DNA from: an uncultured Acidobacteriota bacterium
Lineage (GTDB): Bacteria > Acidobacteriota > Terriglobia > Acidiferrales > UBA7541
Assembly (NCBI GenBank): GCA_963842255.1
Contig: CAWJGI010000034.1
Location: 16,601 to 80,600 of the forward strand
Reading direction: 5' to 3'
DNA: 64,000 nt
Shown here: one piece after another, positions 15,068 to 55,316 of the stretch
Numbering within the stretch: position 1 is the first letter of the stretch
Layout of the letters: each line of letters starts with the position of its first letter
Made by a program: the position numbers and the translations under genes
Notes under the pieces: generated by a model
Database searches by the model: none
The model's input: only the letters and a program-made list of their open reading frames with translations
What the model was told of the DNA's origin: nothing

Positions 15068-17266
15068 ATGCCCCCGGCAGAAAAGCCTGCCATTTCACCA
15101 GCGGCCCGTCGCGCGGTTGACTTGCGTTTTGTCGAATTAATCGACAAGGTGCGCCGCAGCCGGCCCGGCAACGACCTCGAGCTGCTGCGCCGCGCCTACG
15201 ATTTCGCCGCCGAACAACATAAGACTCAAACCCGGCTCTCCGGCGAACCTTTCCTTTCGCATCCTTTGGAAGTGGCGCACATCCTCGCGGATATGAAGCT
15301 GGATGTCACGTCACTGTGCGCCGCGCTTCTGCACGACGTGGTGGAAGACACCAAAATTCCTTTGGCGACAATCACCGATCAATTTGGCGCGGACGTCGCT
15401 CGGCTGGTTGAAGGAACCACCAAAATCAGTCGCCTCGATCTGATCGCGCCGGAAACGCGCCAGGCGGAAAATGTTCGCAAGATGCTCCTGGCGATGGTCA
15501 ATGATGTTCGCGTCGTGGTGGTGAAGCTTGCCGACCGCCTGCACAACATGCGCACGCTCAACTTCCTCGATTCCGAGCGCCAGCAGCGCATCGCGCGCGA
15601 GACATTGGATATTTATGCTCCGGTCGCTAACCGCCTGGGCATGGGTTTGATTCGCGGCGAACTCGAAGATCTCTCATTCCGCTATCTCGAGCCCGAGGCG
15701 TTCTTCGAATTACAGAAAAAACTCGCAGCCAAGCAAAAGGCTTTCGATAAGTTCCTGGTCGAAGTGCAGGATGCGATTCGCGGTAAAATGGTGGAAACGG
15801 GGATTCCCGCTGAAGTGCAGGCACGCGTCAAGCGCATCTATTCACTGCATCTGAAGAGCCAGAAGCAGCAACGCACTATCGATCAGGTGTACGACCTTCT
15901 GGCAATCCGCGTCATCACCGATACCGTCAAAAATTGCTACGCGACGCTTGGTGTAATTCACCAAATTTGGCCGCCGGTACCGGGGCGCTTCAAGGACTAC
16001 ATCGCTATGCCGCGGCCTAACCTCTACCAGTCGTTGCATACGACTGTGATTCACGGGGGGCAAGCCTTCGAAGTTCAAATCCGAACTCAGGACATGCATC
16101 GCATTGCGGAACAAGGCGTGGCCGCCCACTGGAAATATAAGGATGGCCGTACCGAAGTCTCGACTGCCGACGATCAGCGCATCGTCTGGATGCGACAGTT
16201 GATCGAGTGGGTGCAGGAAATGCAGGAGCCCAGCGAATTTCTTTCAACTCTCCGAGTAGACCTGTATCCCGAAGAAGTTTACACATTCACGCCCATGGGC
16301 CGCGTGGTGGTGCTGCCACGGGGCGCTACCACGATTGATTTTGCCTATGCGGTTCATACCGAAGTAGGTCATCAATGTACCGGCGCAAAAGCGAACGGCG
16401 CGATCGTTCCTCTGCGCCACACCCTGGCCAATGGCGATGTGGTGGAAATTATCACGCAGAAAGGCCACGAGCCTTCACGCGATTGGCTTTCCTTCGTGCA
16501 CACCTCGCGGGCCCGCAGCAAAATCCGCCAATGGATTAATCTCCACGAACGCGAACAGGCCAAGGATGTGGGCAAACGCTTGCTGGAAAAAGAGGCGCGC
16601 CAAGCGGGCATCCCGCTGAAGAAAATTACGTCGGAGGATTGGCAGCGCGTTGCGTCTGAATATGGCTGCGGACGCATAGACGATCTCCACGCTGACCTCG
16701 GATACGGCAAATGGTCCGCGAGACAGGTGCTAGCGAAGGCTTCTGGTCAGACGCTCCTCGAGCTCTCTGACGAAAAGCCGAAAATCGTAGACACCGTAAA
16801 GCGCATGTTGGGCATGAATGACGGCTCGATTCTGGTGCGCGGGCACGACGATTTGATGGTCTATCGTTCGAAGTGCTGCAATCCAATTCCCGGAGATGAC
16901 GTGGTCGGTTACGTAACGCGCGGCCGTGGCATCGCAGTGCACGGCAAAAGCTGTCCCAACGTTCAAAATCTTCTGTACGACGCCGAGCGCCGCATCGCCG
17001 TCGAATGGGCAGGCCAGACGCAAGCCACATTCCCGGTACGATTGCGTATCCTTACCGAAGACCGTCCCGGTATGCTAGCCAACATCACCGCAGTGATTAG
17101 CGATGCTGGGGCGAACATTCGCACCTTCGAAAGCGGCGGGCAAGATTTGCGCGCGCGCATCGATGTGGCTCTCGACGTTCAAGACCGCAAGCAGCTCGAA
17201 CGAATTCTTTCCGCGATTAAGCGTATCCAAGGGGTCTTCGATATCGAGCGCGTCTACAACGTCTGA
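15068..17266 (+). CDS. rel: bifunctional (p)ppGpp synthetase/hydrolase, RelA/SpoT family
   Basis: 732 aa. Has an HD hydrolase motif (HDVVEDT), a synthetase block (YIAMPRPNLYQSLHTTV), and TGS and ACT C-terminal domains. Confidence 0.95.
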   Translation: MPPAEKPAISPAARRAVDLRFVELIDKVRRSRPGNDLELLRRAYDFAAEQHKTQTRLSGEPFLSHPLEVAHILADMKLDVTSLCAALLHDVVEDTKIPLATITDQFGADVARLVEGTTKISRLDLIAPETRQAENVRKMLLAMVNDVRVVVVKLADRLHNMRTLNFLDSERQQRIARETLDIYAPVANRLGMGLIRGELEDLSFRYLEPEAFFELQKKLAAKQKAFDKFLVEVQDAIRGKMVETGIPAEVQARVKRIYSLHLKSQKQQRTIDQVYDLLAIRVITDTVKNCYATLGVIHQIWPPVPGRFKDYIAMPRPNLYQSLHTTVIHGGQAFEVQIRTQDMHRIAEQGVAAHWKYKDGRTEVSTADDQRIVWMRQLIEWVQEMQEPSEFLSTLRVDLYPEEVYTFTPMGRVVVLPRGATTIDFAYAVHTEVGHQCTGAKANGAIVPLRHTLANGDVVEIITQKGHEPSRDWLSFVHTSRARSKIRQWINLHEREQAKDVGKRLLEKEARQAGIPLKKITSEDWQRVASEYGCGRIDDLHADLGYGKWSARQVLAKASGQTLLELSDEKPKIVDTVKRMLGMNDGSILVRGHDDLMVYRSKCCNPIPGDDVVGYVTRGRGIAVHGKSCPNVQNLLYDAERRIAVEWAGQTQATFPVRLRILTEDRPGMLANITAVISDAGANIRTFESGGQDLRARIDVALDVQDRKQLERILSAIKRIQGVFDIERVYNV

Positions 17267-17570
17267 GTTTGCAGACAGCTCCCGAGACCCGGTCTAAGGT
17301 TTCAAGGTGGCGCCGGCCGTTATCCCCGCCGAGATGCCAAAAGTGTATATAGCTGGGCTCAGTTTCAACGCGAAAACATCCAGCTAAAATAGCGGTTGGC
17401 GGCTGCCCCTTAGTTTTATAGCGCCCGCCGTCGGCTGGCCGCTTCTGACTTTCTCTGCATCCTTCGCGGCAGGGTTTTGCGCCTCAAAGCCGTTAATCCT
17501 TCCGCGTCACGCCGCACACCCGTCGCACGCCACTCTGTACAATAAAATCGGGGGCAGTATCCAGCCATTC

Positions 17571-18200
17571 ATGTTCGCGCGCAAACCAGGTCGCAGCAAC
17601 CACCGCACCTGCACACTCGCGCCGGTGCTCGCAGGCGTGTTATTCCTCGCATCGTGTCAAAGTTTGATGCCGCTGGACACCGTTCCGCTCGATAACGCTG
17701 GAATGTCCTACCAGACCATCAAAGAGTTGAAGACCCTGCATATCGCCCAGCCCGAGGTGAGGGAAATCGCGGAAGTGCGTCAAGCGGGCCTGCCCGATTC
17801 ATATTGTGCTGAATTGCTTCGCATTTTCCACGAGCGCCACCAGCAATTTACAGCTGGCAGCGCGGCTGCCGGAATGCTGCACTCCGGAATGCGTGAGGGG
17901 ACAATTTTGGGCCTCGCCAATATGGATCAGCTGGGTCTGGGCTCCGGTGAACTGCAAGCCATGCACCTGGCAGGGCTGTCCGACGACATAATTCTGGAGG
18001 TAGCACGTCGTCATGCTTCGGGCCAGCCCGTGCTTTCGGGCGCGTCGCTCGGTAATATGAGGAACGCTCGCCTGGACAATGCCACCTTGCTCGAACTGGT
18101 CCGTCGCGGCGTCCCCAATTCCGAAGCGGCTGAAATTGTCGCGCTGCGTCGCAATGGCAGAACTGACGCCGACATTCTGCGCCGGCTGCCTGCTCCGTAA
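17571..18200 (+). CDS. hypothetical lipoprotein
   Basis: Has a signal peptide and lipobox (LFLASC). I recognised no family. Confidence 0.5.
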   Translation: MFARKPGRSNHRTCTLAPVLAGVLFLASCQSLMPLDTVPLDNAGMSYQTIKELKTLHIAQPEVREIAEVRQAGLPDSYCAELLRIFHERHQQFTAGSAAAGMLHSGMREGTILGLANMDQLGLGSGELQAMHLAGLSDDIILEVARRHASGQPVLSGASLGNMRNARLDNATLLELVRRGVPNSEAAEIVALRRNGRTDADILRRLPAP

Positions 18201-22814: not shown

Positions 22815-24962
22815 ATGAAGCGCCGCGAGTTTCTAAAAACCGGAGTCGCGCTCGGAGGCGGGCTCTTAATCAGCCTGTACGTTCCTAATTTTGTGCCAGC
22901 GCGCGCGGCACAATCGGCCGGCAAGCCTGTTGCGCTTAACGCTTTCGTCCGCATCGGCACCGACGAATCGGTAACTGTGATCTCGAATCATTCCGAGATG
23001 GGCCAGGGAATTTACACTTCCCTTCCGATGCTCCTCGCCGAAGAGCTCGAGGCTGATTGGACGAAAATTCGAGTGGGATCTGCTCCTGTAGAAGCGGTTT
23101 ATAACCATACCGTTTTCGGCATGATGATGACGGGCGGCAGCACCACTACAAACTCGGAATACGATCGTTTCCGCAAGATGGGCGCTATGGCGCGCGTCAT
23201 GCTGATAGCGGCCGCGGCGCAATCGTGGAATGTCGATCCCCAATCATGCCATGCGGAAAAAGGCTACGTCGTTCAGACCTCCACGGGGCGCCGTGCATCT
23301 TTCGGCAGCCTTGCGGATGCTGCTGCAAAATTAGAGCCGCCGAAGGACGTTCCGCTGAAGGATCCCAAGGATTTCACGATCATTGGCCGGGCGACACATC
23401 GCCTCGATACTCCGGCAAAAACGAACGGCAGCGCGCAATTCGGCCTCGATGTTTACATTCCGGGTACGATGACGGCCGTGGTCGCGCGCGCCCCTGTTTT
23501 TGGCGGCAAAGTAAGAAGTTTCAACGCAGATAAAGCTAAAGCGGTTCCCGGCGTTGTCGATGTCGTGCAGGTTCCCTCCGGCATTGCGGTGATCGCCAAA
23601 GGTTTCTGGCCAGCGAAACTGGGCCGTGAAAAACTGGAAATAACCTGGGACGAAGGCCCGGGCGCGCAGATCTCCACTGTTGTAATGCGCGAGCAATTCG
23701 CGGCACTTGCGCGCTCTCCCGGGAATATCGCCCGCAAAATGGGCGATCCCGCCGGTGTGCTTTCCGGCGCGCCGAAAACAGTTACTGCAGAGTACGAAGT
23801 TCCCTACCTGGCCCACGCGATGATGGAGCCGCTCAATACGGTCGTTGATCTGCATGACGATCACTGCGAAATCTGGAGCGGCACGCAATTTCAAACCGGC
23901 GATCGCGCCGCTGCTGCCAAGGTTTTTGGTTTTAAACCCGAGCAGGTTGCGATTCACACCACGTTTCTCGGCGGCGGGTTCGGGCGACGCGCCAATCCTG
24001 CCTCGGATTTTGTCACCGAAGCTGCTGAAGTGGCAAAAGCTGCAAAAGTCCCGGTAAAAGTTGTCTGGGCGCGCGAAGACGATATTCGCGGCGGCTGGTA
24101 TCGCCCCATGTGGTACGACCATTTTGCCGCGGGCCTCGATGCCAGCGGAAATCCCGTTGCATGGACTCACACCATCGTCGGCCAATCCATCTTCGAAGGC
24201 ACCATGTTCGAGAATTTCGGGATCAAGAATGGCATCGATTCCGCTTCTGTCGAAGGCGCGGCGGATTTGGTCTACGAAATTCCCAACGTGCAGGTTGATC
24301 TACACAGTCCCAAGAACGAAGTTCCGGTGCAATGGTGGCGCTCGGTCGGCCACTCTCATACCGGCTTTTCGGTAGAAGCTTTTTTCGACGAGGTTGCTCA
24401 CGCCGGTGGCAGGGATCCTTACGAGCTTCGCCGCGCGCTTCTGGCCCATCAGCCGCACATGCTCGCTGTGCTTGATCTCGTCGCCCAAAAATCAAATTGG
24501 GGCAAGCCGTTGCCCGCGGGCCGTGGCCGGGGAATCGCCACGCATTTTTCTTTTGACAGCTATGTGGCCCAGGTTGCCGAGGTTTCGGTGGATAGTGATG
24601 GAACGGTCCATGTGCATCGCGTGGTGGCGGCGGTAGACTGCGGCAGCGTCGTAAATCCCGACACGGTGAAAGCCCAGATCGAAGGCGGGATCATCTTCGG
24701 CCTCACCGCGGCGCTGAAAACGGAAATCACCCTCGACAAGGGCCGCGTGCAGCAACGCAATTTCCACGATTATCCGATGCTGCGCATGTTTGAATCGCCC
24801 GAAATCGAGGTCTACATCGTTCCCAGCACCGAGAAACCCACGGGCGTCGGCGAGCCGGGAGTTCCGCCAGTCGCGCCTGCCGTTGTCAACGCCATATTCG
24901 CTGCAACCGGCAAACGCGTTCGCCGCCTGCCGATCAAGGCCGAAGACTTGCGGACCGCATGA
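22815..24962 (+). CDS. molybdopterin-binding large subunit of a molybdo-hydroxylase (IorB type), Tat-exported
   Basis: Has a twin-arginine signal (MKRREFLKTGVALGGG) and a xanthine dehydrogenase family a/b-hammerhead and Moco domains. Confidence 0.9.
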   Translation: MKRREFLKTGVALGGGLLISLYVPNFVPARAAQSAGKPVALNAFVRIGTDESVTVISNHSEMGQGIYTSLPMLLAEELEADWTKIRVGSAPVEAVYNHTVFGMMMTGGSTTTNSEYDRFRKMGAMARVMLIAAAAQSWNVDPQSCHAEKGYVVQTSTGRRASFGSLADAAAKLEPPKDVPLKDPKDFTIIGRATHRLDTPAKTNGSAQFGLDVYIPGTMTAVVARAPVFGGKVRSFNADKAKAVPGVVDVVQVPSGIAVIAKGFWPAKLGREKLEITWDEGPGAQISTVVMREQFAALARSPGNIARKMGDPAGVLSGAPKTVTAEYEVPYLAHAMMEPLNTVVDLHDDHCEIWSGTQFQTGDRAAAAKVFGFKPEQVAIHTTFLGGGFGRRANPASDFVTEAAEVAKAAKVPVKVVWAREDDIRGGWYRPMWYDHFAAGLDASGNPVAWTHTIVGQSIFEGTMFENFGIKNGIDSASVEGAADLVYEIPNVQVDLHSPKNEVPVQWWRSVGHSHTGFSVEAFFDEVAHAGGRDPYELRRALLAHQPHMLAVLDLVAQKSNWGKPLPAGRGRGIATHFSFDSYVAQVAEVSVDSDGTVHVHRVVAAVDCGSVVNPDTVKAQIEGGIIFGLTAALKTEITLDKGRVQQRNFHDYPMLRMFESPEIEVYIVPSTEKPTGVGEPGVPPVAPAVVNAIFAATGKRVRRLPIKAEDLRTA

Positions 24963-28652: not shown

Positions 28653-30347
28653 GTGTTGAAATTTCTGGCAAGACATCGAATTCAATTGATGCTGTTTGTG
28701 TTTTTCTTCACAGCGAGTAGTGACCGCTGCTTCGCACAGAACAATGGACAGGCTTCGGAGCAACAATCACCTCAGTCGATTCAAAGCGAACTCGATGCGA
28801 TGCGAAAGCGTATCGATGAACTGGAAGCGGAGGTCAAAAGTTTAAAAGCGCCAGAACATCCGGCCACGCCTGTGACGACCGCGAAGGCGACCGTGCCGGT
28901 CGCCCCGAATGCTCCAGCGAATGCGCTGCCATCCGCAGCACCGACAGCCGCGGCCACGTCCCCTGCGAGCGCGCCGGTCCAGGCCGAGGTCGCCAAAGTG
29001 GAGCCTTTTTCGGATGCGGATTGGACCTGGCTAAATGGCAATCCGCGCACCAAGGAAATATTTTGGGACACAAAATTCTTTACCCCGGAGATTCGGTCAG
29101 ACGCAGTTTACGTCTACGACTTCAATCATCCCACCGATCACTCCATGGGCGGATCCAGTGAACTATTCCGTTCGCAAGAAGTACAACTGACGCAGCTCGG
29201 CGTGGGCGGCGATTTCCACTACGATAACGTGCGCGCCCGGCTGATGACCCAGTTCGGCATGTATTCAGCGACGACGCCTCGGAACGACCCAAGTCCGGGT
29301 CATGGCCAGTGGGATCTGGTTTCTGCGTATCGCTACATATCGGAAGCGTACGGCGGCTATCACTTCGACAAACTGCACGGAGTGAACGTGGACGCAGGAA
29401 TCTTTTTGTCGTACATCGGATTGTTCAGTTACTACCAATTCGACAATTGGGCCTACCAACCATCATACGTTTCGTCAAACACACCATGGTTCTTTGAGGG
29501 CGTGCGCGTACAGATTTTCCCCACGGCGCACTTGAAGATTGAACCCTGGTTCATCAATGGGTGGCAATCGTATGCGTCGGCGAATCACAGGCCGGGCCTC
29601 GGTGGCCAGATCAAATGGACTCCGAAACCCTGGATCAATGTGATCTCCAACAACTACGGCCTCGGCCGTGATGATCTGTTCATACCCACGCGCAGGCGCA
29701 TCCACACTGACAACAGCATCGAGGTTAAGTATTACGACAGACCCGATAATCTGACTCTCGACAAGATGGCGTTCTCGCTGACCGGCGATGCGGGTTGCGA
29801 ATACGGCGGTGGCGTGAGCTGTTATGGAGATCACCGCGGCGGACCCAAGCAAAGTTTCCTCGGTTATATGCTCTACAACCGCTTCTGGTTTCATCACGAC
29901 TTGTTCGGCCTGACGCTGGGCGGCGGGAAAATCAACAATCCAGGACGATACCTGGTGCTGCTGCCGCCAATCAATGGGGAGAGCGCGATTACGGCATCTA
30001 CAAATTCTCCTTACTTTACGGAGAATCCGGGAAATCCGTTCAAGGCCTGGGACTCATCCATCACGTTTGACTACATGCCCAAGCAGTACATCACCTTCCG
30101 CTGGGAGTACGACTATCGCCATGCGAATGTGCCGTACTGGACTGGCCGTGGTGGCATCACGCCTCCGGGCGGCAATACCGGAACTCCCACAGATTACATT
30201 TGCAATAACGGCGTCTCCTCCGGACAGGAATCGCTGGGCCCTGCGACGACTTTTTGCACGAGCCCATCGCAGAGTTCCAGCGTGTGGTTTCCGGATCTTC
30301 GGAGGGACGAGTCGTTTATCGACATGTCCATTCTGGTCAAATTCTAA
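28653..30347 (+). CDS. outer-membrane beta-barrel porin (OmpL-like bbp2/DUF1597 type) with an N-terminal coiled coil
   Basis: Has a signal peptide, a coiled coil (LDAMRKRIDELEAEVKSLK), the motif PFSDADWTWLNGNPR, alternating beta-strand pattern and a C-terminal F. GTG at 28653 follows GGAG. Confidence 0.7.
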   Translation: MLKFLARHRIQLMLFVFFFTASSDRCFAQNNGQASEQQSPQSIQSELDAMRKRIDELEAEVKSLKAPEHPATPVTTAKATVPVAPNAPANALPSAAPTAAATSPASAPVQAEVAKVEPFSDADWTWLNGNPRTKEIFWDTKFFTPEIRSDAVYVYDFNHPTDHSMGGSSELFRSQEVQLTQLGVGGDFHYDNVRARLMTQFGMYSATTPRNDPSPGHGQWDLVSAYRYISEAYGGYHFDKLHGVNVDAGIFLSYIGLFSYYQFDNWAYQPSYVSSNTPWFFEGVRVQIFPTAHLKIEPWFINGWQSYASANHRPGLGGQIKWTPKPWINVISNNYGLGRDDLFIPTRRRIHTDNSIEVKYYDRPDNLTLDKMAFSLTGDAGCEYGGGVSCYGDHRGGPKQSFLGYMLYNRFWFHHDLFGLTLGGGKINNPGRYLVLLPPINGESAITASTNSPYFTENPGNPFKAWDSSITFDYMPKQYITFRWEYDYRHANVPYWTGRGGITPPGGNTGTPTDYICNNGVSSGQESLGPATTFCTSPSQSSSVWFPDLRRDESFIDMSILVKF

Positions 30348-38972: not shown

Positions 38973-39323
38973 CTATTGCACATTGAGTGTGACGGGAATG
39001 CTGTGAATGTCTGTGCCCGACGACGCGTTCACGGTGACGGTGTACGTTCCTGTCGGCGTTCCCATATTGGGGAACTGTACACACACGCAGCAGCGGAGAC
39101 TGAACGCGAAGCCGTGCTCGCCATGGAAAGGGCGATTTATGGCGATTTGTTTCGAGTTGTTCCCAATTTGGGGAACAGGAACAACTCGGCGGCAATTAAC
39201 TGGAGTTGAGGCTGAAACCGGTTGCCTTGTAACTGAAACTAAAAAGGGCGCTTCGAGGTTTTGCTTCGCAGCGCTCATGGTTGCGGGGGGCCGATACGTA
39301 CCGAATTTAGACAATTTGTGCAT
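38973..39323 (-). pseudogene. remnant of a C-terminal Ig-like surface domain
   Basis: Ends in ..GTPTGTYTVTVNASSGTDIHSIPVTLNVQ*. The upstream part is scrambled over several frames. Confidence 0.3.
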
Positions 39324-40782: not shown

Positions 40783-42690
40783 TTAGGAGTGCGCGGTCGA
40801 GTCTTGACCTTGACGCAATTCCCGGGTCATTTGCCAAGCGGAAAGCGCAGCGACTAGCATCAGGCACCCTCCCAGCGTCCATTTCTGCATGAGCAATTTG
40901 CCCACACCAAAAAGAGCGCTGTACACCATTACGGTACCGAGAATACAACACCACAGGTTTTGCCTGAGATCGTGCGTTGCCGGGATTTCGGCTGCGAGCG
41001 CGCCGATCGTTTTCCAGCCGGTGACGTCGGGACGAACCTTGCGGTAGAAAGAGAGCAGTATGCTGTCCGGTTCGGGAGCTGTGAGTAGCGTCACTACAAT
41101 CCACACCGCAGTGGTGATGAAAGTTGTGGTCAGAACATTCTTGGCGAAAAGCACGGTGGCCGACCCCATGAAAAATGTCGGTCGCCCAATCAAAGCGTTC
41201 CACAATTCTTCAGAATGCAGCGCTAAGGTCAAAAGCAGCGCGGTAATCATGGAAGAAATTTCACTCCACGCGTTGATGCGCCACCAGTACCAGCGCAGCA
41301 AGTACACCCCGCCGGTGCCGGCGCCCACTTCAAGCACGGCTTGCCACCCGGAACGAATCGACGCCAGTTGAGCGGAAACGTAGCCAGTGGCGATCACCAG
41401 CAGCACTGTGACGAACTGAGAGACGTGAACGTAGTGACGTTCTGAGGCGTGTCGGACCAGGAAACGGCGGTAGAAATCCTCGACAACATAGGAAGTGCCC
41501 CAGTTCAGTTGCGTTGCGATCGTGGACATGAATGCAGCGAGAAAGCCGGCGACGATAATGCCGCGCAATGCGTGCGGTACATGGTCATTCACCATCATCA
41601 TGTAACTCGTCTCCGGATGGGACAGACCTGGATACAGCACGATCGCGGCAAGCGCGGTAAGAATCCAGGGCCACGGCCGCAACGCAAAGTGCGCCACGTT
41701 AAACCACAACACGGATAGCAGGCCTTGCCGTTCGTCGCGTGCGCTGAAAATGCGTTGGGCAATGTAGCCTCCTCCGCCTGGCTCCGACCCCGGATACCAG
41801 AACGCCCACCACTGCACGCCGAGATACACCGCAAAAGTGATCACCGGTAGAGTCCATAGTGTTTCGGTAGCGAATCCACGCGAAAAATCGGGGAGAAATG
41901 CAATAGGATCCGCGGCACCATTTTTGGAGCGTAGCTCTGCGATCTGCTCGATCATGGAATTCATCCCGCCCGCAGCACGCACCGAATAGTAAGCGATAGC
42001 AATCACGATGCTCATTTTCAGGATGAATTGAAAAAGGTCGGTCCACAGAACCCCGGAAAGCCCGCCAAGCGAAACATAGAAGCCAGTGAAGGGGATGAGG
42101 AAAAAAATGCAAATAATTAGCGCGTAGCCATCGGCGCCGGAAAACGTCGCACCAAACACGCCGCTAAGGCTGCGCGACATACTCTGAAGAAAATGCCATC
42201 CGCTAATGGTAGAACCGAGCGTGGTGCCAACAATGTTAATCATCGCCTTTGTCACCCAGCCCAGGATCAAGCAGTTCATCAGCACACCCAGGTAAATGGC
42301 ACGAAATCCGCGCAAAAACGCAGCGGGCTTGCCGGAGTAACGCATTTCGGCGAACTGCACGTCGGTCATCAGGCCCGAGCGGCGCCACAATCGCGCAAAT
42401 AAAAATACCGTCATCATTCCCGACGGCAGAAAGGCCCACCAGATCCAGTTTCCGGAAATGCCCTGCGTGTAAACGAGGCCGGCTACAAGCAAAGGCGTGT
42501 CCGCGGCGAATGTAGTGGCCACCATGGACGTACCGGCCAGCCACCAGGAGGCCGTGCGCCCGGAAACGAAATAGTCTTCAGAGCTGCGCGCCGCCGAGCG
42601 CCGGAAATAAAGTCCAAGTAGGAGAGTAATCAGAAGGTAGGCAACAATCGCGGACCAATCCAACAATGTGAAGGGCATGGACCAGCGCAT
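40783..42690 (-). CDS. sodium:solute symporter (SSF) family transporter
   Basis: 635 aa with about 14 TM spans. Contains YFVSGRTASWWLAGTSMVATTFAADTPL. Confidence 0.9.
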   Translation of the reverse strand: MRWSMPFTLLDWSAIVAYLLITLLLGLYFRRSAARSSEDYFVSGRTASWWLAGTSMVATTFAADTPLLVAGLVYTQGISGNWIWWAFLPSGMMTVFLFARLWRRSGLMTDVQFAEMRYSGKPAAFLRGFRAIYLGVLMNCLILGWVTKAMINIVGTTLGSTISGWHFLQSMSRSLSGVFGATFSGADGYALIICIFFLIPFTGFYVSLGGLSGVLWTDLFQFILKMSIVIAIAYYSVRAAGGMNSMIEQIAELRSKNGAADPIAFLPDFSRGFATETLWTLPVITFAVYLGVQWWAFWYPGSEPGGGGYIAQRIFSARDERQGLLSVLWFNVAHFALRPWPWILTALAAIVLYPGLSHPETSYMMMVNDHVPHALRGIIVAGFLAAFMSTIATQLNWGTSYVVEDFYRRFLVRHASERHYVHVSQFVTVLLVIATGYVSAQLASIRSGWQAVLEVGAGTGGVYLLRWYWWRINAWSEISSMITALLLTLALHSEELWNALIGRPTFFMGSATVLFAKNVLTTTFITTAVWIVVTLLTAPEPDSILLSFYRKVRPDVTGWKTIGALAAEIPATHDLRQNLWCCILGTVMVYSALFGVGKLLMQKWTLGGCLMLVAALSAWQMTRELRQGQDSTAHS

Positions 42691-42748
42691 TTATGGCATA
42701 GTTCGCCCGATTGGGACAATGGGAATCCGGTTGCGGGGATCACAATAT

Positions 42749-42793
42749 CTAAAAGACAAGCCGGGAGACGTGATCGCCTCCCGGTTTCTTTTG
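42749..42793 (-). terminator. bidirectional intrinsic terminator after the YXWGXW gene
   Basis: The stem is CCGGGAG / CTCCCGG (7 bp) with a 10-nt loop. It is flanked by T-rich runs on both strands. Confidence 0.6.
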
Positions 42794-42829
42794 GACGCGA
42801 GCCTGTTGTGTTAGATGCTCAGGGGTTTC

Positions 42830-44032
42830 CTACTTTTCTTTGGTGCTGCTATTGCTGTGCTTCTGATTGTGAATCTGCTTGCTTTCCTTGTTCTGTTCCT
42901 TATTGACCTGTTTCTTTTCAGCGGGAGTCAGCTTTCCGCCGTTTGCCTTGCGGTCTGCGTTCACCTGCTTGTTGATTTTCTGCTCATTGCCTTCGTCTTT
43001 TGCAGCTTCGCCAGCACTCATTTTGCCGCTTTGAATGCCGTTGGCGATGCGGTCCTGCTGATTCTCTTGCCGCTGGCCTACCTCGCTCTTGTTGCCGGGC
43101 TGTGTCGCGGCATTGTGCTTATCGTCATAAATCGAGCGGCTCACGTTATTCTGCTGTTGATTCACGTGCTGCCGTTCTGCCGGAGTCAGCGTTCCATCGT
43201 TGGCTTTACGGTCGGCGCTCACTTCATGGTTGATGTTCGACTCGCGCGTCTCCAGGTTCTTTGTTTCGCCAGCCGTCAGTTGTCCTGATCGGACGCCATT
43301 CGCGATGCGATCCTGCTGATTTTCGGCGCGAGCGCCTACCTTGCTCATCGCTGGTGTCGCAGGCTTCCCATGATTGACTGAGGCGAAATTCGAGCGGTCG
43401 GTGCTTGCGGCATGTTCATGAGAGGCCTGTTCAGCGGTAGGCTGAACGTGCTCTTCGTGCGCAGCAGCTTCTTCTTCCGCAGTCGGCTTCGCGGCAACTC
43501 CGCCCGGACCGCCATTGAAACTGGTGCGGGTCACCGTCGTATTATTCACGACAGTTTTGTCCACGTAGGTGTTGTGGATCACTGTGGTGTTAACGTTGAC
43601 CACCGCGGTGTTATACGCGAAGTGCCCGCCACGCCACGCCCCGCCGACGAAACCGACTCCGCCATAACCGAAACCGTAATTCACGCCGCCGTAGAAGCCC
43701 ACGTGCGGGCCCCAGTAGCCCCCATGAAATCCATAAACGCCACCCGCAAATCCCCAATAACCAGGGGTCCAAAGCAGACCGACTCGTGGCGGTGCCACCC
43801 ATACGCCCGGTACCCAATAGTAATCACCATTCGTATAACCCCAGTAGCCGGGTGTCCAGATATATCCTTCCAGCGGGCAAGCTGGCTGAACGTAAACCGG
43901 CAAGGCCGGCGGAGCGACATGGACCGAAATACCAATCGCGATTTGCGCAGACGCTGAAGGCGTCGTTGCGAATCCAAGTGCTGCTAACAGTGCAACCGGT
44001 AAAAGTGCTCGAACGACTGCGAACCTAGACAT
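42830..44032 (-). CDS. secreted YXWGXW-repeat protein with two C-terminal ~60-aa polar repeats
   Basis: Has a signal peptide, then GYIWTPGYWGYTNGDYYWVPGVWV...WTPGYWGF. It then has two copies of ENQQDRIANG..SG...AGE...N..V.ADRKANGG.LTPAE...VN..QN. Confidence 0.7.
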   Translation of the reverse strand: MSRFAVVRALLPVALLAALGFATTPSASAQIAIGISVHVAPPALPVYVQPACPLEGYIWTPGYWGYTNGDYYWVPGVWVAPPRVGLLWTPGYWGFAGGVYGFHGGYWGPHVGFYGGVNYGFGYGGVGFVGGAWRGGHFAYNTAVVNVNTTVIHNTYVDKTVVNNTTVTRTSFNGGPGGVAAKPTAEEEAAAHEEHVQPTAEQASHEHAASTDRSNFASVNHGKPATPAMSKVGARAENQQDRIANGVRSGQLTAGETKNLETRESNINHEVSADRKANDGTLTPAERQHVNQQQNNVSRSIYDDKHNAATQPGNKSEVGQRQENQQDRIANGIQSGKMSAGEAAKDEGNEQKINKQVNADRKANGGKLTPAEKKQVNKEQNKESKQIHNQKHSNSSTKEK

Positions 44033-50005: not shown

Positions 50006-50851
50006 CTAGCGGTCACTCACGACTCCTGCCTGCGCAGTGATTCTGCTGTCGTCACCCACACGTCTTTTCAGCAACAACCGGCTGCTGCTCCAAACCAGTT
50101 GCAGGCCCGCGAAGATGGCAATCAGTGCCACAGCCGTCTTTAGCCGATTTGCGGGAACCTTGCGCGCCAGAATGCATCCGACGATGACCCCGGGAACGCC
50201 GCCCGCCAGAAGTTGGAGCAGCACAGAATTGTTGATCGAGCCGAAGCTATAATGAAAGGCGCTGCCAATCAGCGCCAACACCAAGCCAAAAACCAGGTCT
50301 GTTCCCACAACTTGCGCCGGCGTCATTTCAGAATAATTGAGCAGCAGAACGGTCCCCAGCGCGCCTGCGCCCGCGGAAGAAAATCCCGATTCCACTCCGA
50401 TCGGCAAAGCGAGCCAGGGAAGCAATCGCCGATTCTTCAGCGCAAACGAGGGATTTTGTACGCGCCGGATAAATGTCACGCTGGATGACGCGGCCAGGAG
50501 AACGCCCAGCACCAGGATTACGAACGGGTTGCCTGGGTCCCGGCTCAGATATCGGAGCAGCCACGTGCCCACCAAGAGCCCCGGAACGGCGCCCTGCAGC
50601 AGAAGCCACAAATAGCGCGAATGAAACTGCCTTCCGAACAGGTAGAAAGGAGCTGCAATCAAGCGCAGTACGCCTGCAAACAAGAAAGCTGTCCCCACGG
50701 CTTCTCCGGCGGTCAGTCCAGCAATAAGCACCAGGGCTGGCACGGTGAAGCTTCCGCCGCCGATGCCGGTCAATCCCACCGCCAGAGCGATGACGAATCC
50801 CACAAGGCCGTGTATCACTGTTCGCTCCGCGAAATCGTATGGATCCCGCAT
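50006..50851 (-). CDS. TauE/SafE-family sulfite/anion exporter
   Basis: Starts at MRDPYDF. Has 8 TM spans and the motif LTGIGGGSFTVPALVL. It overlaps the cysH 3' end by 37 nt. Confidence 0.8.
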   Translation of the reverse strand: MRDPYDFAERTVIHGLVGFVIALAVGLTGIGGGSFTVPALVLIAGLTAGEAVGTAFLFAGVLRLIAAPFYLFGRQFHSRYLWLLLQGAVPGLLVGTWLLRYLSRDPGNPFVILVLGVLLAASSSVTFIRRVQNPSFALKNRRLLPWLALPIGVESGFSSAGAGALGTVLLLNYSEMTPAQVVGTDLVFGLVLALIGSAFHYSFGSINNSVLLQLLAGGVPGVIVGCILARKVPANRLKTAVALIAIFAGLQLVWSSSRLLLKRRVGDDSRITAQAGVVSDR

Positions 50852-51546
50852 TCCAGTTTCTTGCCGCCCCAACGCCCCGAACGAGGATTGCCTGGGTCGT
50901 CTGGAATCGCAGTGCAGGGTTGGCATCCGATGCTCAAGTACCCTTGATCGTATTGCGGCAAGTAATTGATTTTCTTCTTGGCTATGTACTCCCATACTTG
51001 TGCCCACTTCCAATCGGCTAAGAGGCTCACCTTCAAAATCGTCTTCCTGCTCGGCAATTGGTGCTCTCCCACTTTCTTCATATTTTTCCGTGTGGGGGAC
51101 TGCTCGCGCCTCAATCCTGTGAACCAGACTTCGTAACGCTCCAAGGCTTGGAACAACGGTTCCACTTTGCGCAGTTGGCAGCATTTCGTCGGATCGCCGC
51201 TGTATAAAATTCCGAATTCCGATTCCTGTTGCTCCACCGTCTTCTGCGGAGTCACGTTCACCAGATTCAACGACCATTCCTTCGCCATCCGGTCGCGGTA
51301 CTCGTAGGTTTCAGCGAAGTGATAACCGGTATCGAGGAACAAAACGGGAATCGAGGGAATCCGCTTCCGGAGAAAATCGAGCACGATCATGTCTTCGGCT
51401 TGGAAACTGCAAGTCAGGCACGCGTGTTGTCCGGAATGCGCGTCGAGAACGGCGCTCAATGTTTCCTCTGGTCCCAGGCTCTCGATGTTCTCAGCAAGGA
51501 ATGACGTTGCCATTTCAAACCACCTCCCCAGGATTTCCATCGCCAT
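50815..51546 (-). CDS. cysH: adenylyl-sulfate (APS) reductase, thioredoxin-dependent CysH type with Fe-S cysteines
   Basis: Has the PAPS/APS reductase fold, the CC..(KCCQLRKV) and CxxC (GCQPCT) cluster ligands, and the C-terminal ECGIH. Its start shares one base with the cysN stop (TGATG). Confidence 0.9.
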   Translation of the reverse strand: MAMEILGRWFEMATSFLAENIESLGPEETLSAVLDAHSGQHACLTCSFQAEDMIVLDFLRKRIPSIPVLFLDTGYHFAETYEYRDRMAKEWSLNLVNVTPQKTVEQQESEFGILYSGDPTKCCQLRKVEPLFQALERYEVWFTGLRREQSPTRKNMKKVGEHQLPSRKTILKVSLLADWKWAQVWEYIAKKKINYLPQYDQGYLSIGCQPCTAIPDDPGNPRSGRWGGKKLECGIHTISRSEQ

Positions 51547-53256
51547 CAGAAAATGCGGAACGACTTGGCCAAAGTCAGAACGTGTTCAAGAGCTTCCGCG
51601 TCTCCCACGGGCAGATTCATTTCAGAAAGATCGAAAAAGCGATCCCCCGCCGCCGCTTTCAGTTCCAGTCTCTCCTCCAATCCCAATCTTGAGTTCTGAT
51701 AGATCACTACGAAGCCTGCGGCGTACAATGCGGCCCAAGCTGCCTTCACAGAAGCGAAAGGTGCTTCGCTTTCGTGGGTGACAATCACTTCGAACCCTAT
51801 TGCGAAGAGCGCGCGCTCGATTCGCGGCGCCAGTTCCTCGCGCGAGTTGGTGAGGATGATGCCGGGATAGTGCCCATGCCGGCGATATCGTTCAAGCGGA
51901 GTTAGAGCAGCGTCTACACTCTTTGATTCCCGGCTCGTAAGGATTTCGTCCTGCGTGCGGCTCTCTTGGATCATCCCCGCGGCTAGGGTCGCATTGGTCA
52001 AGGGATCGATGATGATGAAACTACCGGTCGTCCGGTTCTGTTTATAAGAGTCAAAAAAGAGAGGGGTGTTCGTTTCGAATTCCGCGACTGCGATGTCATT
52101 CATCTGCAGTCGCTCAGATGATTCCGTCTCCAGAGTGTTGATGTTGACGCGATGCTGAATTTTGGTGACCGCGCCGCGCACGTGGCGTACTCCGTGTTTG
52201 ATCAAGTAGGATTGCTGCAATTTCAGCGGCTGCGCGTGCATCCACACAATCGCTGCTCGAAATCGCTGTGACACTTGCGGCGGACTGTCTGGAGCAACGA
52301 GCATGTCTCCCCGACTCAGGTCAATCTCGTCTTCAAGCTTCAACGTCACCGACATCGGCGCGAACGCTTCGGCCAGGGGTCCGTCGTAGGTCACAATCGC
52401 TCCCACGCGAGATTGCATCCCCGAAGGAAGCGCGAGAACGGCATCACCGGGACGAATCACTCCACCGGCTACTTGTCCGGCAAATCCTCGGAAGTTCGCG
52501 TCCGGGCGAATCACGTATTGAACGGGGAATCGCACACCTTGCGTGCTTGAGAATCTCGTTATCGGCACAGTTTCCAGGTGTTCCAGCAGCGTCGGGCCCG
52601 CGTACCAAGGCATTCGCTCACTGCGCTCGACAACGTTGTCGCCTGCAAGAGCGCTGATCGGAATGCACTCGACCCTTGCGATTCCCAGCTTCTCGGCAAG
52701 CACGAGGAACCGTTTTGCTAGAGCCCGGAATCTCTGCTTCTTGATATCCCACCAGATCCATCTTGTTGATCGCAGCCACGACGTTCGGAATTCCAAGCAG
52801 CGAAGCGATGTAAGCGTGCCGCGTCGTTTGCGGAAGAAGTCCCTTTTCTGCGTCGATGAGGATCACCGCCAAATCCGCGGTGGACGCACCGGTAGCCATG
52901 TTGCGCGTGTACTGCTCGTGTCCCGGGGTGTCCGCGATGATGAACTTTCGCCGCGCGGTTGTGAAATACCGGTACCCCACGTCGATCGTGATGCCCTGCT
53001 CGCGCTCCACGCGCAGTCCGTCCGTAATCAACGAAAAATCAATGGGTCCGCTCGAACGGTTGATCCGGCTTTTTTGCGCCGAAGCGAGTTGGTCCTCGTA
53101 AAGAGACTTGGAATCGTGCAGCAGCCTCCCGATCAACGTGGACTTGCCGTCGTCCACGCTTCCCGCAGTCGTGAATCGCAGCAGTTCCTTGTTCAGATTC
53201 TGCTCGAGGAATAACCCGAAGTCGTTGGGCAGCTCGATGGCTGTTACTGAAGACAT
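51546..53256 (-). pseudogene. cysN: sulfate adenylyltransferase subunit 1 (GTPase) fused to a degenerate APS-kinase-like domain; one frameshift as sequenced
   Basis: Has [18 protein letters not shown] and NKMD G-motifs. The pieces join at ..[10 protein letters not shown]|FRALAKRF.. near 52730. The last ~118 aa align to CysC (ERYRRHGHYPGIIL..) but the P-loop GLSGSGKS is replaced by TNSREEL. Confidence 0.9.
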
Positions 53257-54233
53257 TAGAAGTAGCCCTCCCGCTTCTTGATTTCCATCGAACCTTCCTC
53301 GTCATGATCGATCACGCGGTTTTCGCGCTCGGACCGGCAGAACGAAATCATTTCTTCGATGATCTTGGGGACAGTGTTGGCCTCTGACCGGATGGCGCCG
53401 GTGCACGGCACGCATCCAAGCGACCTCATGCGGCACTTGACCGGCAGGGATTTCTCACTTGGCAGAAGCTGGTCTTTCGAATAAATCAGGACGATAGAGC
53501 CGCCGCGCACCACGGCTTCGCGCTCGCGCGCAAAATACAGCGGCACGATCGGAATGTTTTCAAAGTGGATGTAGAGCCAAATGTCCAGTTCCGTCCAGTT
53601 CGATAGCGGGAAGATCCGGATGCTCTCCCCTTTGTCAATTCTCGAATTGAAAACGTTCCAAAGCTCCGGCCGCTGGTTTCTGGGATCCCACTGTCCACGG
53701 GTGTCGCGAAACGAATAAATTCTTTCTTTGGCTCGCGACTTTTCTTCATCGCGGCGCGCGCCGCCAAACGCCGCGTTGAATTCGCCTTCGGCCAGCGCAT
53801 CCAGCAGAGATGTGGTCTTCAACAAACCGCAGCATTTTTGCGTGCCCAGCAAAAACGGGTTTGCGCCTGCGTTGAGCGCTTGCTGGTTCTTATGGACAAT
53901 CAGTTCCGCCCCGATCTCCTTCGCATATTGGTCGCGAAATTCGATCATCTCGGGGAATTTGTAGCCTGTGTCTATGTGCAGCAAGGGAAACGGAATCCGC
54001 CCGGGATAAAAAGCCTTCTGCGCCAGCCGGAGCATCACGGAAGAATCCTTGCCAACGGAGTAGAGCATTACTGGCCGTGAAAACTCTGCACCGGCTTCTC
54101 GCAGGATATGAATACTCTCGGCTTCGAGCTTTTTCAGGTGGCTTAGCCTGCGCTCGGGCGACGCGCCCCTGCCGGCGCTCTCAGTGTTGAACTGCGCCAC
54201 TTCATTGGAAAATTCTTGAGTTGGGCTCGCCAT
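53256..54233 (-). CDS. cysD: sulfate adenylyltransferase subunit 2
   Basis: Contains [30 protein letters not shown].. ATG at 54233 follows AAGGGA. The longer track start at 54281 lies inside the leader terminator, so I rejected it. Confidence 0.9.
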
Positions 54234-54264
54234 TCGTTGCTTTCCCTTCTGAAAATTGGCGTAT

Positions 54265-54306
54265 AAAAACAAAAAACCCACCTGCCAGTTGACCTCTGGC
54301 GGTGGG
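54265..54306 (-). terminator. intrinsic terminator (attenuator) in the cysD leader
   Basis: RNA CCCACCGCCAG-AGGUCAA-CUGGCAGGUGGG (11 bp, one bulged A), followed by UUUUUUGUUUUU. It ends 31 nt before the cysD ATG. Confidence 0.75.
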
Positions 54307-54408
54307 CTAGAAAACTCTCGGCTAGATTTCGAGTCTTAGTGCACTAGCCTCCCGGTGCCAGAGGACACGCATGCGCAACAAAGACAACAGATCTGCGCCA
54401 TCCTCTGG
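54293..54408 (-). promoter_or_regulatory. alternative-helix region of the cys attenuator (segments 1, 2 and 3)
   Basis: Segment 1 is CCAGAGGA (54401-54408). Segment 2 is UCCUCUGGC (54357-54365). Segment 3 is GCCAGAGG (54293-54300), which overlaps the terminator 5' arm. The 1:2 and 2:3 pairings are each 8 bp and mutually exclusive. Confidence 0.6.
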
Positions 54409-54428
54409 TTCGTGTGGCCGATGAACAT
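54336..54428 (-). CDS. Cys-rich leader peptide ORF (30 aa from ATG 54428, or 21 aa from the in-frame ATG 54401)
   Basis: Encodes MFIGHTNQRMAQICCLCCACVSSGTGRLVH*. The Cys codons TGT TGT (CTT) TGT TGC (GCA) TGC lie at 54369-54389. Confidence 0.55.
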   Translation of the reverse strand: MFIGHTNQRMAQICCLCCACVSSGTGRLVH

Positions 54429-54435
54429 GGAAAGG

Positions 54436-54464
54436 AGTGTACATGGCCCAAGCGGTCAAGGCAA
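54436..54464 (-). promoter_or_regulatory. candidate sigma70-type promoter of the cys leader
   Basis: TTGCCT, a 17-nt spacer, then TACACT. The -10 element ends 7 nt before ATG 54428, so the leader peptide mRNA may be leaderless. Confidence 0.35.
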
Positions 54465-54797
54465 TAGGCAGAAATGGAACCATTTCTGTGTATGATTTCG
54501 TATGCCTACCACCGGGGCGCTATATGTTGGTGCGTAGTATTCCTCTAGAAGTGGCGATTTGTATCACCCATAAACAGAAATTTACCGCTTGCACACCGCT
54601 GGTGTTACTGCCCTAATAAAAGCTAACGGCAGGGTACTCAGCAAGCGTATGTCCAGCGATTTCCGAAGCCTGAACGGACACGCAAGTGTTCACGATCCCG
54701 TGCAGCGCAGTGGGTAGTGCCTACGCTTGATAATGCTCGCAGCGCGTGGGATGCTGAGCCGCTCGATTCGCGATCCTCAGATTGGAGGTTCTGGCCT

Positions 54798-55316
54798 GTG
54801 GTGAGTCACGTAAGAAGGCTTCTCTTACCGCTGCTGCTTTGTTCAGCCACTTTGGCTTTTGCCCAACAGCCGCCGGTTAATTCTCCGTTACTCGATCATC
54901 TCGCTGGGAGATGGGTGCTCCGGGGCACGATTGCAGGCCAAGACACCACACATGATGTCAACGCCGAGTGGGTTCTGGAACATCACTACCTGGTCATTCA
55001 CGAAGTGTCGCGTCAGAAGAACGGCAAAGGCGAACCGCAATATGAGGCCACGATCTACATTGCATGGAACGAAGCGACGAAGGAATACTCTTGCGTTTGG
55101 CTCGATGTTTACGGTGGCTTGACGACAGAATCGATTGGCGTCGCAAGCCCGAAGGAAAACGAACTATTTTTTGTTTTCAAGGATGAAAAGAGTGAAGTCA
55201 ATTTCAAGAACGATTTCGTTTATAACGCAAAAGCGAGCACTTGGGAGTGGCGCATGGATAATATTGCAAACGGCGTTGCAAAACCGTTCGGACGCGTCAC
55301 ACTTACCCACAACTAA
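54798..55316 (+). CDS. secreted hypothetical protein (possibly DUF1579-like)
   Basis: GTG at 54798 lies 9 nt after GGAGG. It has a signal peptide (LLLPLLLCSATLAFAQQ). Confidence 0.5.
   Translation: MVSHVRRLLLPLLLCSATLAFAQQPPVNSPLLDHLAGRWVLRGTIAGQDTTHDVNAEWVLEHHYLVIHEVSRQKNGKGEPQYEATIYIAWNEATKEYSCVWLDVYGGLTTESIGVASPKENELFFVFKDEKSEVNFKNDFVYNAKASTWEWRMDNIANGVAKPFGRVTLTHN

Follow-up and report, generated by a model that had tools for sequence, protein, structure and literature searches.

What controls the sulfate-assimilation genes of an uncultured Acidobacteriota bacterium is the question raised by a short leader directly 5' of cysD in contig CAWJGI010000034.1 of assembly GCA_963842255.1, of which we analyzed positions 16,601 to 80,600 (64,000 nucleotides (nt), hereafter the window, whose own numbering is used throughout). 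An earlier note, made from the letters of the window, had read this leader as a ribosome-mediated attenuator of the trp/his type. Comparison with orthologous leaders supports that reading: although their sequences differ, they too have an upstream open reading frame (uORF) rich in cysteine (Cys) codons, a terminator and the two alternative pairings. We consider it probable that the leader is a transcription attenuator of this type, which would sense charged tRNA-Cys and control cysD-cysN-cysH-tauE. In silico it has most of what such attenuators have, namely a leader open reading frame (ORF), a run of codons specifying the product of its own pathway, an intrinsic terminator and a predicted antiterminator that excludes the terminator, while a candidate anti-antiterminator helix is supported by register-free tests.

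The uORF, the Cys cluster, the three segments, the terminator and the promoter were all found on the minus strand where the earlier note had placed them. The leader peptide uORF (54336–54428) consists of 30 codons and a TAA stop, runs from an ATG at 54428 to the stop at 54338–54336, has the translation MFIGHTNQRMAQICCLCCACVSSGTGRLVH and ends 102 nt before cysD. Its codons 14–20 (54369–54389) read TGT TGT CTT TGT TGC GCA TGC, so that five of seven are Cys. Segment 1 (54393–54426), supported by the minimum free energy (MFE) structure and the register-free swap tests described below, is the 5' half of a predicted anti-antiterminator hairpin and has the core CCAGAGGA (54401–54408). Segment 2 (54344–54367), with the core UCCUCUGGC (54357–54365) and an extension of GG and GGCUAG, can pair with segment 1 or with the 5' arm of the terminator. 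Segment 3 (54293–54312) comprises that arm, the flanking CUAGCC and the loop bases used in the antiterminator, with its core GCCAGAGG at 54300–54293. The intrinsic terminator (54265–54306) has an 11-bp GC-rich stem with one bulged A, formed by CCCACCGCCAG (54306–54296) and CUGGCAGGUGGG (54288–54277) around a 7-nt loop, and a U6GU5 tract (54276–54265). The end of this tract lies 31 nt from the cysD ATG (54233), as the earlier note had given it, and the gene order cysD, cysN, cysH and a TauE-family gene that it had listed 3' of the leader is borne out by the sequence and by Pfam, which places the leader directly 5' of sulfate-assimilation genes. The Shine-Dalgarno (SD) sequence of cysD, read from the sequence as AAGGGA (about 54243–54248), and its start codon are 17–31 nt past the U-tract, and both are unpaired in the MFE structure.

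The conservation of these elements was examined in a comparative set that was assembled by a CysD protein scan with one genome per species, giving 80 loci, all from Acidobacteriota (Terriglobia) and mostly from metagenome-assembled genomes (MAGs), with CysD proteins 71–90% identical. Stop-free 7-codon windows were scanned in the 350 nt 5' of cysD in 79 of these upstream regions, and at least three Cys codons in seven were found in 67 of the 79 and at least four in 41. The corresponding frequencies in controls were far lower: at least four Cys codons in seven were obtained in 12 of 1580 shuffles, in 3 of 79 reverse strands and in 2 of 72 regions comprising the next 350 nt upstream, and at least three in 14%, 10 of 79 and 15 of 72, respectively. 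Five or more Cys codons in seven, as in the window, arose in one of the 1580 shuffles of the 79 upstream regions, which together with the conservation in relatives places the Cys cluster beyond chance. In addition, L070, whose CysD diverges most within this set, served as the seed for a scan of metagenomes. It gave 72 usable loci as an independent replication set, 46 of which have at least three Cys codons in seven, with a terminator in 30 of those 46, and among these are relatives whose CysD is only 68–71% identical to that of the window.

The reading frame around the Cys codons is itself conserved. Orthologous uORFs have a median length of 30 codons (interquartile range (IQR) 27–31), and over the uORF spans 289 TGY triplets lie in frame versus 115 and 37 in the remaining two frames. 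A second in-frame ATG that is present in the uORF of the window is absent from L004, and therefore the first ATG is the conserved start. The first Cys codon is a median of 19 codons ahead of the stop, and the stop a median of 34 nt (IQR 32–37) before the terminator arm. The elements are present and conserved, as is their geometry, and the alternative helices, to which we return below, are mutually complementary.

The choice of Cys codon in the uORFs differs sharply from that in the gene that follows. A total of 225 TGT and 64 TGC codons were counted in the uORFs (78% TGT), compared to 28 TGT and 253 TGC in the cysD genes (10% TGT; Fisher p = 1.5e-65). Other two-fold degenerate NNY codons are T-ending in 25% of cases in the uORFs and in 39% in the cysD genes, and within the uORFs Cys codons differ from those other codons with an odds ratio of 10.8 (p = 3e-31). 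The TGT bias is therefore specific to Cys codons, as the other NNY codons of the same uORFs are mostly C-ending. Such a bias fits selection for the wobble-read and presumably slower UGU, which would amount to a tuning of the sensitivity of stalling, but it could alternatively serve to keep the loop of the hairpin unstructured. We know of no documentation of codon tuning of stalling sensitivity for attenuators.

Strong column-wise covariation is confined to the terminator. Of the 68 Cys-cluster regions (67 loci and the window), 58 were found to have a hairpin followed by a T-run in the interval that separates the uORF from cysD, and this is a lower bound, since three more loci have a terminator that the detector missed and that was seen by eye. 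Its stems vary among subgroups (CCCACCGCCAG, CCCACCACCGG, CCCGCCCUCGG, CCCACGCACUGG and CCCACGCGUCAGA), and in an alignment of 53 sequences 89% of the cells at terminator positions are paired, compared to 29–49% in slid controls. There were 76 cells with double changes versus 33 in shuffles, and none of 500 shuffles had covariation as high.

The two other helices were addressed with energy tests that assume no register. The 5' arm of the terminator finds its best partner in the last 5–8 codons of the uORF, and this partner changes together with the arm: CUGGC..GGG occurs with CCC..GCCAG, CCGAGGGCG with CGCCCUCGG and UCUGACGC with GCGUCAGA. When arms were swapped among loci, uORF ends paired with their own arm 3.3 kcal/mol better than with different foreign arms (Wilcoxon p = 1.7e-7, n = 53), and no own-arm effect was seen in a control zone. 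In the corresponding test of the 1:2 pairing, the 5' part of the uORF paired 5.4 kcal/mol more favorably with the 3' part of the same uORF than with 3' parts of other loci (p = 1.4e-10, n = 46). With the set reduced to one randomly drawn representative for each of 14 sequence clusters, the advantage of own partners persisted, at -2.6 kcal/mol for 2:3 (median p about 0.018) and -4.8 kcal/mol for 1:2 (median p about 0.009). Both helices therefore appear to be kept as complementarity, with no single register common to the leaders.

Folding of the window leader reproduces the two states between which the earlier note had proposed a switch. The unconstrained MFE structure (-58.9 kcal/mol) consists of the 1:2 hairpin and the terminator, and a fold with a stalled ribosome gives the 2:3 antiterminator. 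For the latter, a ribosome footprint was masked on a Cys codon and the 3' arm of the terminator was left out as not yet transcribed. With the footprint on any of Cys codons 1–4, the predicted antiterminator pairs GUCCUCUGGC..GG..GGCUAG with CUAGCC..CC.GCCAGAGG, and it is thus longer than the 8 bp that had been described, owing to the GG and GGCUAG extensions. When the simulated ribosome stands at the stop codon, segments 1 and 2 pair again behind it, so that the terminator arm is left free. The earlier note had this ribosome covering segment 2, and here its account needs amendment: the core of segment 2 ends 19 nt 5' of the stop and is uncovered, and only the 3' extension used by the antiterminator is covered. 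In folds across relatives, with the 3' arm of the terminator again not yet made, a stall at the first Cys codon leaves at least half of the terminator 5' arm sequestered by the 3' end of the uORF in 48 of 53 loci, whereas with the ribosome at the stop this is the case in 16 of 53. The mean sequestered fraction is 0.70 in the stalled state and 0.28 at the stop, compared to 0.44 in shuffled controls.

A further regularity concerns the start of the uORF. In the window a -10 box TACACT (54436–54441) lies 7 nt before the ATG, with a spacer of 17 nt to a -35 box TTGCCT (54459–54464), both by direct reading, and no SD sequence was seen before the uORF ATG in the window sequence. The motif TANNNT stands exactly 7 nt ahead of an in-frame uORF ATG in 26 loci, against a background of about 0.4% per ATG; in those loci a TTGnnn is usually found 17 nt further 5', as in most related loci, with no conservation of the sequence in the spacer. 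Elsewhere the distance between -10 box and ATG is 8–10 nt, and L009 and L014 have the spacing of 7 nt at their second ATG. The conservation of the -10 box exactly 7 nt before the ATG supports the guess of a leaderless start made in the earlier note, and the uORF is accordingly predicted to be leaderless. Two side observations can be added here. Among all ATGs in L001–L080, TANNNT occurs exactly 7 nt 5' in 1.1%, compared to about 0.4% at other spacings, and since leader uORFs do not account for the whole of this excess, these genomes may have further leaderless genes. In addition, a perfect inverted repeat with 9–10-bp arms (54468–54489; CAGAAATGG TT CCATTTCTG) adjoins the -35 box; it was considered as an operator and rejected, as it is partly kept in L001, the closest relative, and absent in the other relatives examined.

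The course of events that we infer, from the transcription start and the translation of the uORF to the stalling at Cys codons and the cysteine-dependent read-through, would be as follows. Indirect indications that the uORF is translated and that read-through would respond to tRNA charging come from the conserved distance of the -10 box to the ATG, the concentration of TGY triplets in one frame and the TGT bias. A sigma-70-type promoter would start transcription at or next to the AUG of the 30-codon uORF, and because the transcript would begin there, a 70S ribosome would load at its 5' end without an SD sequence. When Cys-tRNA is plentiful, the ribosome would pass the five Cys codons and reach the stop, where segments 1 and 2 would re-pair behind it while it masks the 3' extension of segment 2. 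With 1:2 re-paired and that extension masked, the 5' arm of the terminator would be free to pair with the 3' arm, and RNA polymerase would terminate at the U-tract, at a distance of 31 nt from cysD. Under a shortage of Cys-tRNA, the ribosome would stall on the first Cys codons, mostly wobble-read UGU, which are loop codons in the 1:2 hairpin. The stalled ribosome would hold segment 1 occupied, and free segment 2 would pair with the terminator 5' arm once this is transcribed, so that the terminator would be blocked and the operon transcribed.

Several observations weigh against this interpretation or limit how far it can be taken. The case for the attenuator comes from sequence comparison and computed folds. 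The folding energy of the window leader is unexceptional (z = -1.8), with 14 of 200 shuffles folding equally well. Consensus scans of the window missed both the leader promoter, which has 8 of 12 matches and fell under the cut-off, and the terminator, whose stem is bulged, and for these reasons they give no independent support. A scan of 53800–55000 against Rfam 15 with E-values up to 10 returned nothing relevant, only two chance matches to eukaryotic long non-coding RNAs. The case within the window by itself is thus carried by the improbable Cys run and by the way in which the pieces fit together. The naive p-values of the swap tests are inflated because the loci are related, and at the level of clusters they are only about 0.01–0.02.

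Tests in the fixed register of the window were weaker. The 2:3 pairing in that register is 59% paired across relatives (slid controls, 26–46%), a count that supports it moderately, with a covariation score of 0.197 versus 0.156 in shuffles of the 53-sequence alignment. The 1:2 pairing is 62% paired in an alignment of 20 sequences, and its covariation is not significant, as 129 of 500 shuffles were as high. RNAalifold on a MAFFT alignment of 20 full leaders recovered the terminator only, and neither 1:2 nor 2:3. Support for these two helices therefore comes from the register-free energy tests. The comparison proposed in the earlier note, in which related cysD leaders are examined for a Cys-rich uORF and for compensatory changes in the helices, gave a positive result for the uORF and, strongly, for the terminator; both alternative pairings recur as well, with column-wise covariation of 1:2 not significant. 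In addition, the footprint sizes in the fold simulations are assumptions, and segment 2 would be covered by a ribosome stalled at the fifth Cys codon, so that only the first four Cys codons are productive in the model. Lastly, approximately 15% of the related loci are without a recognizable Cys uORF, and loci of the Acidobacteriaceae keep the uORF but have no intrinsic terminator.

The Acidobacteriaceae loci bear on one alternative, in which the uORF senses cysteine by stalling and the output is something other than intrinsic termination, be it Rho-dependent termination, mRNA stability or translation of cysD. Seven loci of this family (L060, L063, L066, L069, L070, L075 and L078) have a CCC uORF of 13–24 codons, predicted to be leaderless, with the pattern M..RACCC..RRCPR, and the family members that keep it include cultured Terriglobus (Terriglobus albidus) and Edaphobacter; no ATG-initiated uORF was seen in Granulicella mallensis (L076). 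Their stop codon is followed by a CU-rich tract, such as CUCCCUCC, which could pair with the cysD SD or serve as a Rho-loading site; single-sequence folds of these terminator-less leaders show no consistent switch that would sequester the SD. The Cys-codon leaders of mycobacteria act through sequestration of the ribosome-binding site (10.1101/834739). For the window we nevertheless regard such an output as improbable, as both the window and at least 58 of the 68 Cys-cluster regions have a GC-rich hairpin of canonical form, with a U-tract, which covaries, and the SD and start codon of cysD lie unpaired past it.

The same loci suggest a wider interpretation, which we put forward tentatively and think somewhat less likely than its negation: that a leaderless and so far unannotated Cys sensor, consisting of the uORF with its UGU run, is widespread in the Terriglobia, with the sensing module conserved, the expression platform exchanged and the UGU bias being a selected tuning of stalling. 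Under such an exchange most lineages, including that of the window, would use an intrinsic terminator with an antiterminator, and the Acidobacteriaceae may use a terminator-less platform that is Rho-dependent or translational.

A second alternative is that the uORF encodes a functional Cys-rich micropeptide, whether metal-binding, redox-active or modified, made from a short transcript of its own and co-expressed with the operon instead of acting as a sensor. The conserved length, start and Cys run of the uORF would suit such a product, as would release of a transcript of approximately 165 nt by the strong terminator and the conservation of a C-terminal motif inside subgroups, for example VSSGxGRLV. 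The peptides, on the other hand, diverge widely except for a CCxCC-like core and that subgroup-specific C-terminus, with the sequence outside the Cys run turning over between subgroups; apart from the Cys run and wherever RNA structure imposes no constraint, they are free to vary. The C-terminal motif is itself explained by a constraint on the RNA, because it changes together with the terminator arm with which it pairs. The preference for TGT, rare in cysD where TGC prevails, is the opposite of what efficient expression would lead one to expect, and in the examined loci of about 6 kb the element was found only directly 5' of cysD. Together these points leave the micropeptide a very slim chance. 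An RNA switch that binds a protein or a ligand (riboswitch or TRAP-like), with the UGY repeats as its binding site and their frame incidental, is equally improbable: a terminator with alternative helices would suit any RNA switch and the UGY triplets do sit in a hairpin loop, but no Rfam family matched at E-values up to 10, the triplets keep to one frame with spacings in multiples of three, that frame opens with an ATG 7 nt from a -10 box and closes a median of 34 nt (IQR 32–37) before the terminator arm, and no conserved unpaired sequence besides the Cys codons was evident in the leader alignments.

If the leader is an attenuator sensing charged tRNA-Cys, as we favor, its closest functional counterparts are leaders of amino acid operons. 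The enterobacterial attenuators trpL, hisL, leuL, thrL, pheL and ilvL combine a short uORF containing codons for the end product with helices 1:2, 2:3 and 3:4. The window element resembles the trpL/hisL class in having a stretch of codons for its pathway's end product, three overlapping predicted helices, a similar size and predicted intrinsic termination before the first structural gene. It differs from the enterobacterial class in its use of cysteine and its cysDNH operon, in its apparently leaderless uORF without an SD sequence, in the position of the regulatory codons in the loop of 1:2 and not inside segment 1, and in a uORF stop that is 3' of segment 2 and not before it. No relationship in sequence or in Rfam links it to the enterobacterial leaders.

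Cys-specific leaders have been described in other phyla. For cys operons of actinobacteria, leader peptides that contain runs of Cys and lack a terminator were first predicted some years earlier (Seliverstov et al. 2005, PMC1262725), and the polycysteine leaders of Mycobacterium smegmatis (Ms5788A and five other loci) were shown to be leaderless; stalling on their Cys codons relieves a duplex that sequesters the SD, and attenuation is translational (Canestrari et al. 2020, bioRxiv 10.1101/834739). The statement in the earlier note that Cys-specific control had only been predicted computationally is thus incorrect, as it has been demonstrated experimentally in M. smegmatis (10.1101/834739). Its remark that no description in Acidobacteriota was known still stands, in that no description of a Cys leader or attenuator in Acidobacteria was found in the open-access literature. 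The window element and the mycobacterial short ORFs share consecutive Cys codons at the head of Cys or sulfur operons, and for the window a leaderless start is predicted, with the ribosome as the probable sensor of Cys-tRNA, as in mycobacteria. The mycobacterial output is translational, with a hidden SD and no terminator, whereas the window has a canonical terminator and a free cysD SD, and the hosts are Actinomycetota and Acidobacteriota, respectively. The window element would therefore match the mycobacterial family at the sensor end and is not a member of it, since the terminator is present and the cysD SD is free; the two are likely of independent origin.

Another Cys-codon leader is the uORFC-8-2 motif 5' of cysS in Rhodobacterales, a predicted attenuator (Brewer et al. 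2021, PMC8632094). Its tandem Cys codons are part of a stem, a terminator ending in a U-run comes after them, and the attenuation is likewise predicted to be ribosome-mediated. It has two Cys codons at approximately positions 14–15 compared to five at positions 14–20 in the window, and it controls cysS in Alphaproteobacteria, whereas the window element precedes cysD in Acidobacteriota. It is a prediction only, and no leaderless start is described for it in PMC8632094. We do not regard the window element as a member of this motif. Leader-peptide transcription attenuators outside Proteobacteria are represented by the trpE, leuA, ilvB and aroF leaders of Corynebacterium glutamicum (PMC3890552, PMC11857589). 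Those leaders respond to Trp, Leu, Ile/Val and aromatic amino acids, and their phylum differs from that of the window. Several C. glutamicum leaders lie on leaderless transcripts, and to the extent that they do, there is precedent for combining a terminator with a uORF that is leaderless.

The proposed mechanism is a classical one and Cys-codon leaders were already known; what the element represents is a well-conserved, unannotated and probable cis-regulator in an under-studied phylum. Acidobacteriota are among the most abundant phyla in soil and their gene regulation is almost uncharacterized. The element provides a testable model of control of sulfate assimilation without a dedicated transcription factor, and would extend ribosomal sensing of cysteine beyond Actinobacteria. 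It also yields an annotation rule that covers more than 100 loci, namely a CCxCC motif within a predicted leaderless uORF some 30 codons long and a terminator, both 5' of cysD. A natural series in which the tuning and rewiring of an attenuator can be studied is provided by the TGT bias, together with the terminator loss seen in Acidobacteriaceae.

Other Cys-rich frames were encountered and set aside. A second frame, ..KTW[SWL]CC[IT]CC.., approximately 2.6–2.9 kb 3' of the cysD start in five Acidobacteriaceae loci (L065:5242-5313, L066:5047-5178, L075:5384-5455, L076:5129-5200 and L079:4877-4948), was considered as a second leader and rejected. It lies inside cysH, where it is an out-of-frame reading of the conserved ..EDMVVLHLL.. 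motif, and has no start codon; four of the five loci use TGC for its Cys codons, and L066 has one TGT. An automated search for Cys uORFs could be misled by this ..KTWSCCICC.. frame. Within the window, further Cys clusters were treated as chance occurrences: one at 29680–29724 on the minus strand, which is antisense within an ORF of 572 amino acids (aa), one at 38992–39037 on the plus strand, which has no start codon, and those at 42621–42906 (plus), 23104–23533 (plus) and 17569–17718 (minus).

The genes of the operon follow the leader on the minus strand. The first gene under the proposed control, cysD (53256–54233), encodes sulfate adenylyltransferase subunit 2 (Pfam PAPS_reduct, E = 2.7e-51) and has orthologs in the 80 loci. 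It is followed by cysN for the GTPase subunit (51546–53256; Pfam), by cysH for the PAPS/APS reductase (50815–51546; PAPS_reduct, E = 1.4e-44) and by an ORF of the TauE/SafE family, listed as 50006–51277 (Pfam TauE, E = 1.3e-35, residues 158–394). In the window cysN is read in two frames via a 1-nt indel near 52731, with overlapping frames at 52618–52796 and an apparent single extra base (..CAA GAA GCA GAG A TTC CGG GCT..). The cysN of L001 is a single intact ORF of 579 aa, and the split could be either an assembly indel, typical of long-read MAGs, or a recent pseudogene. The TauE-family ORF as listed shares approximately 460 nt with cysH in a different frame, and because its TauE domain begins only at residue 158, the true start of this gene is probably near 50.8 kb, right after cysH.

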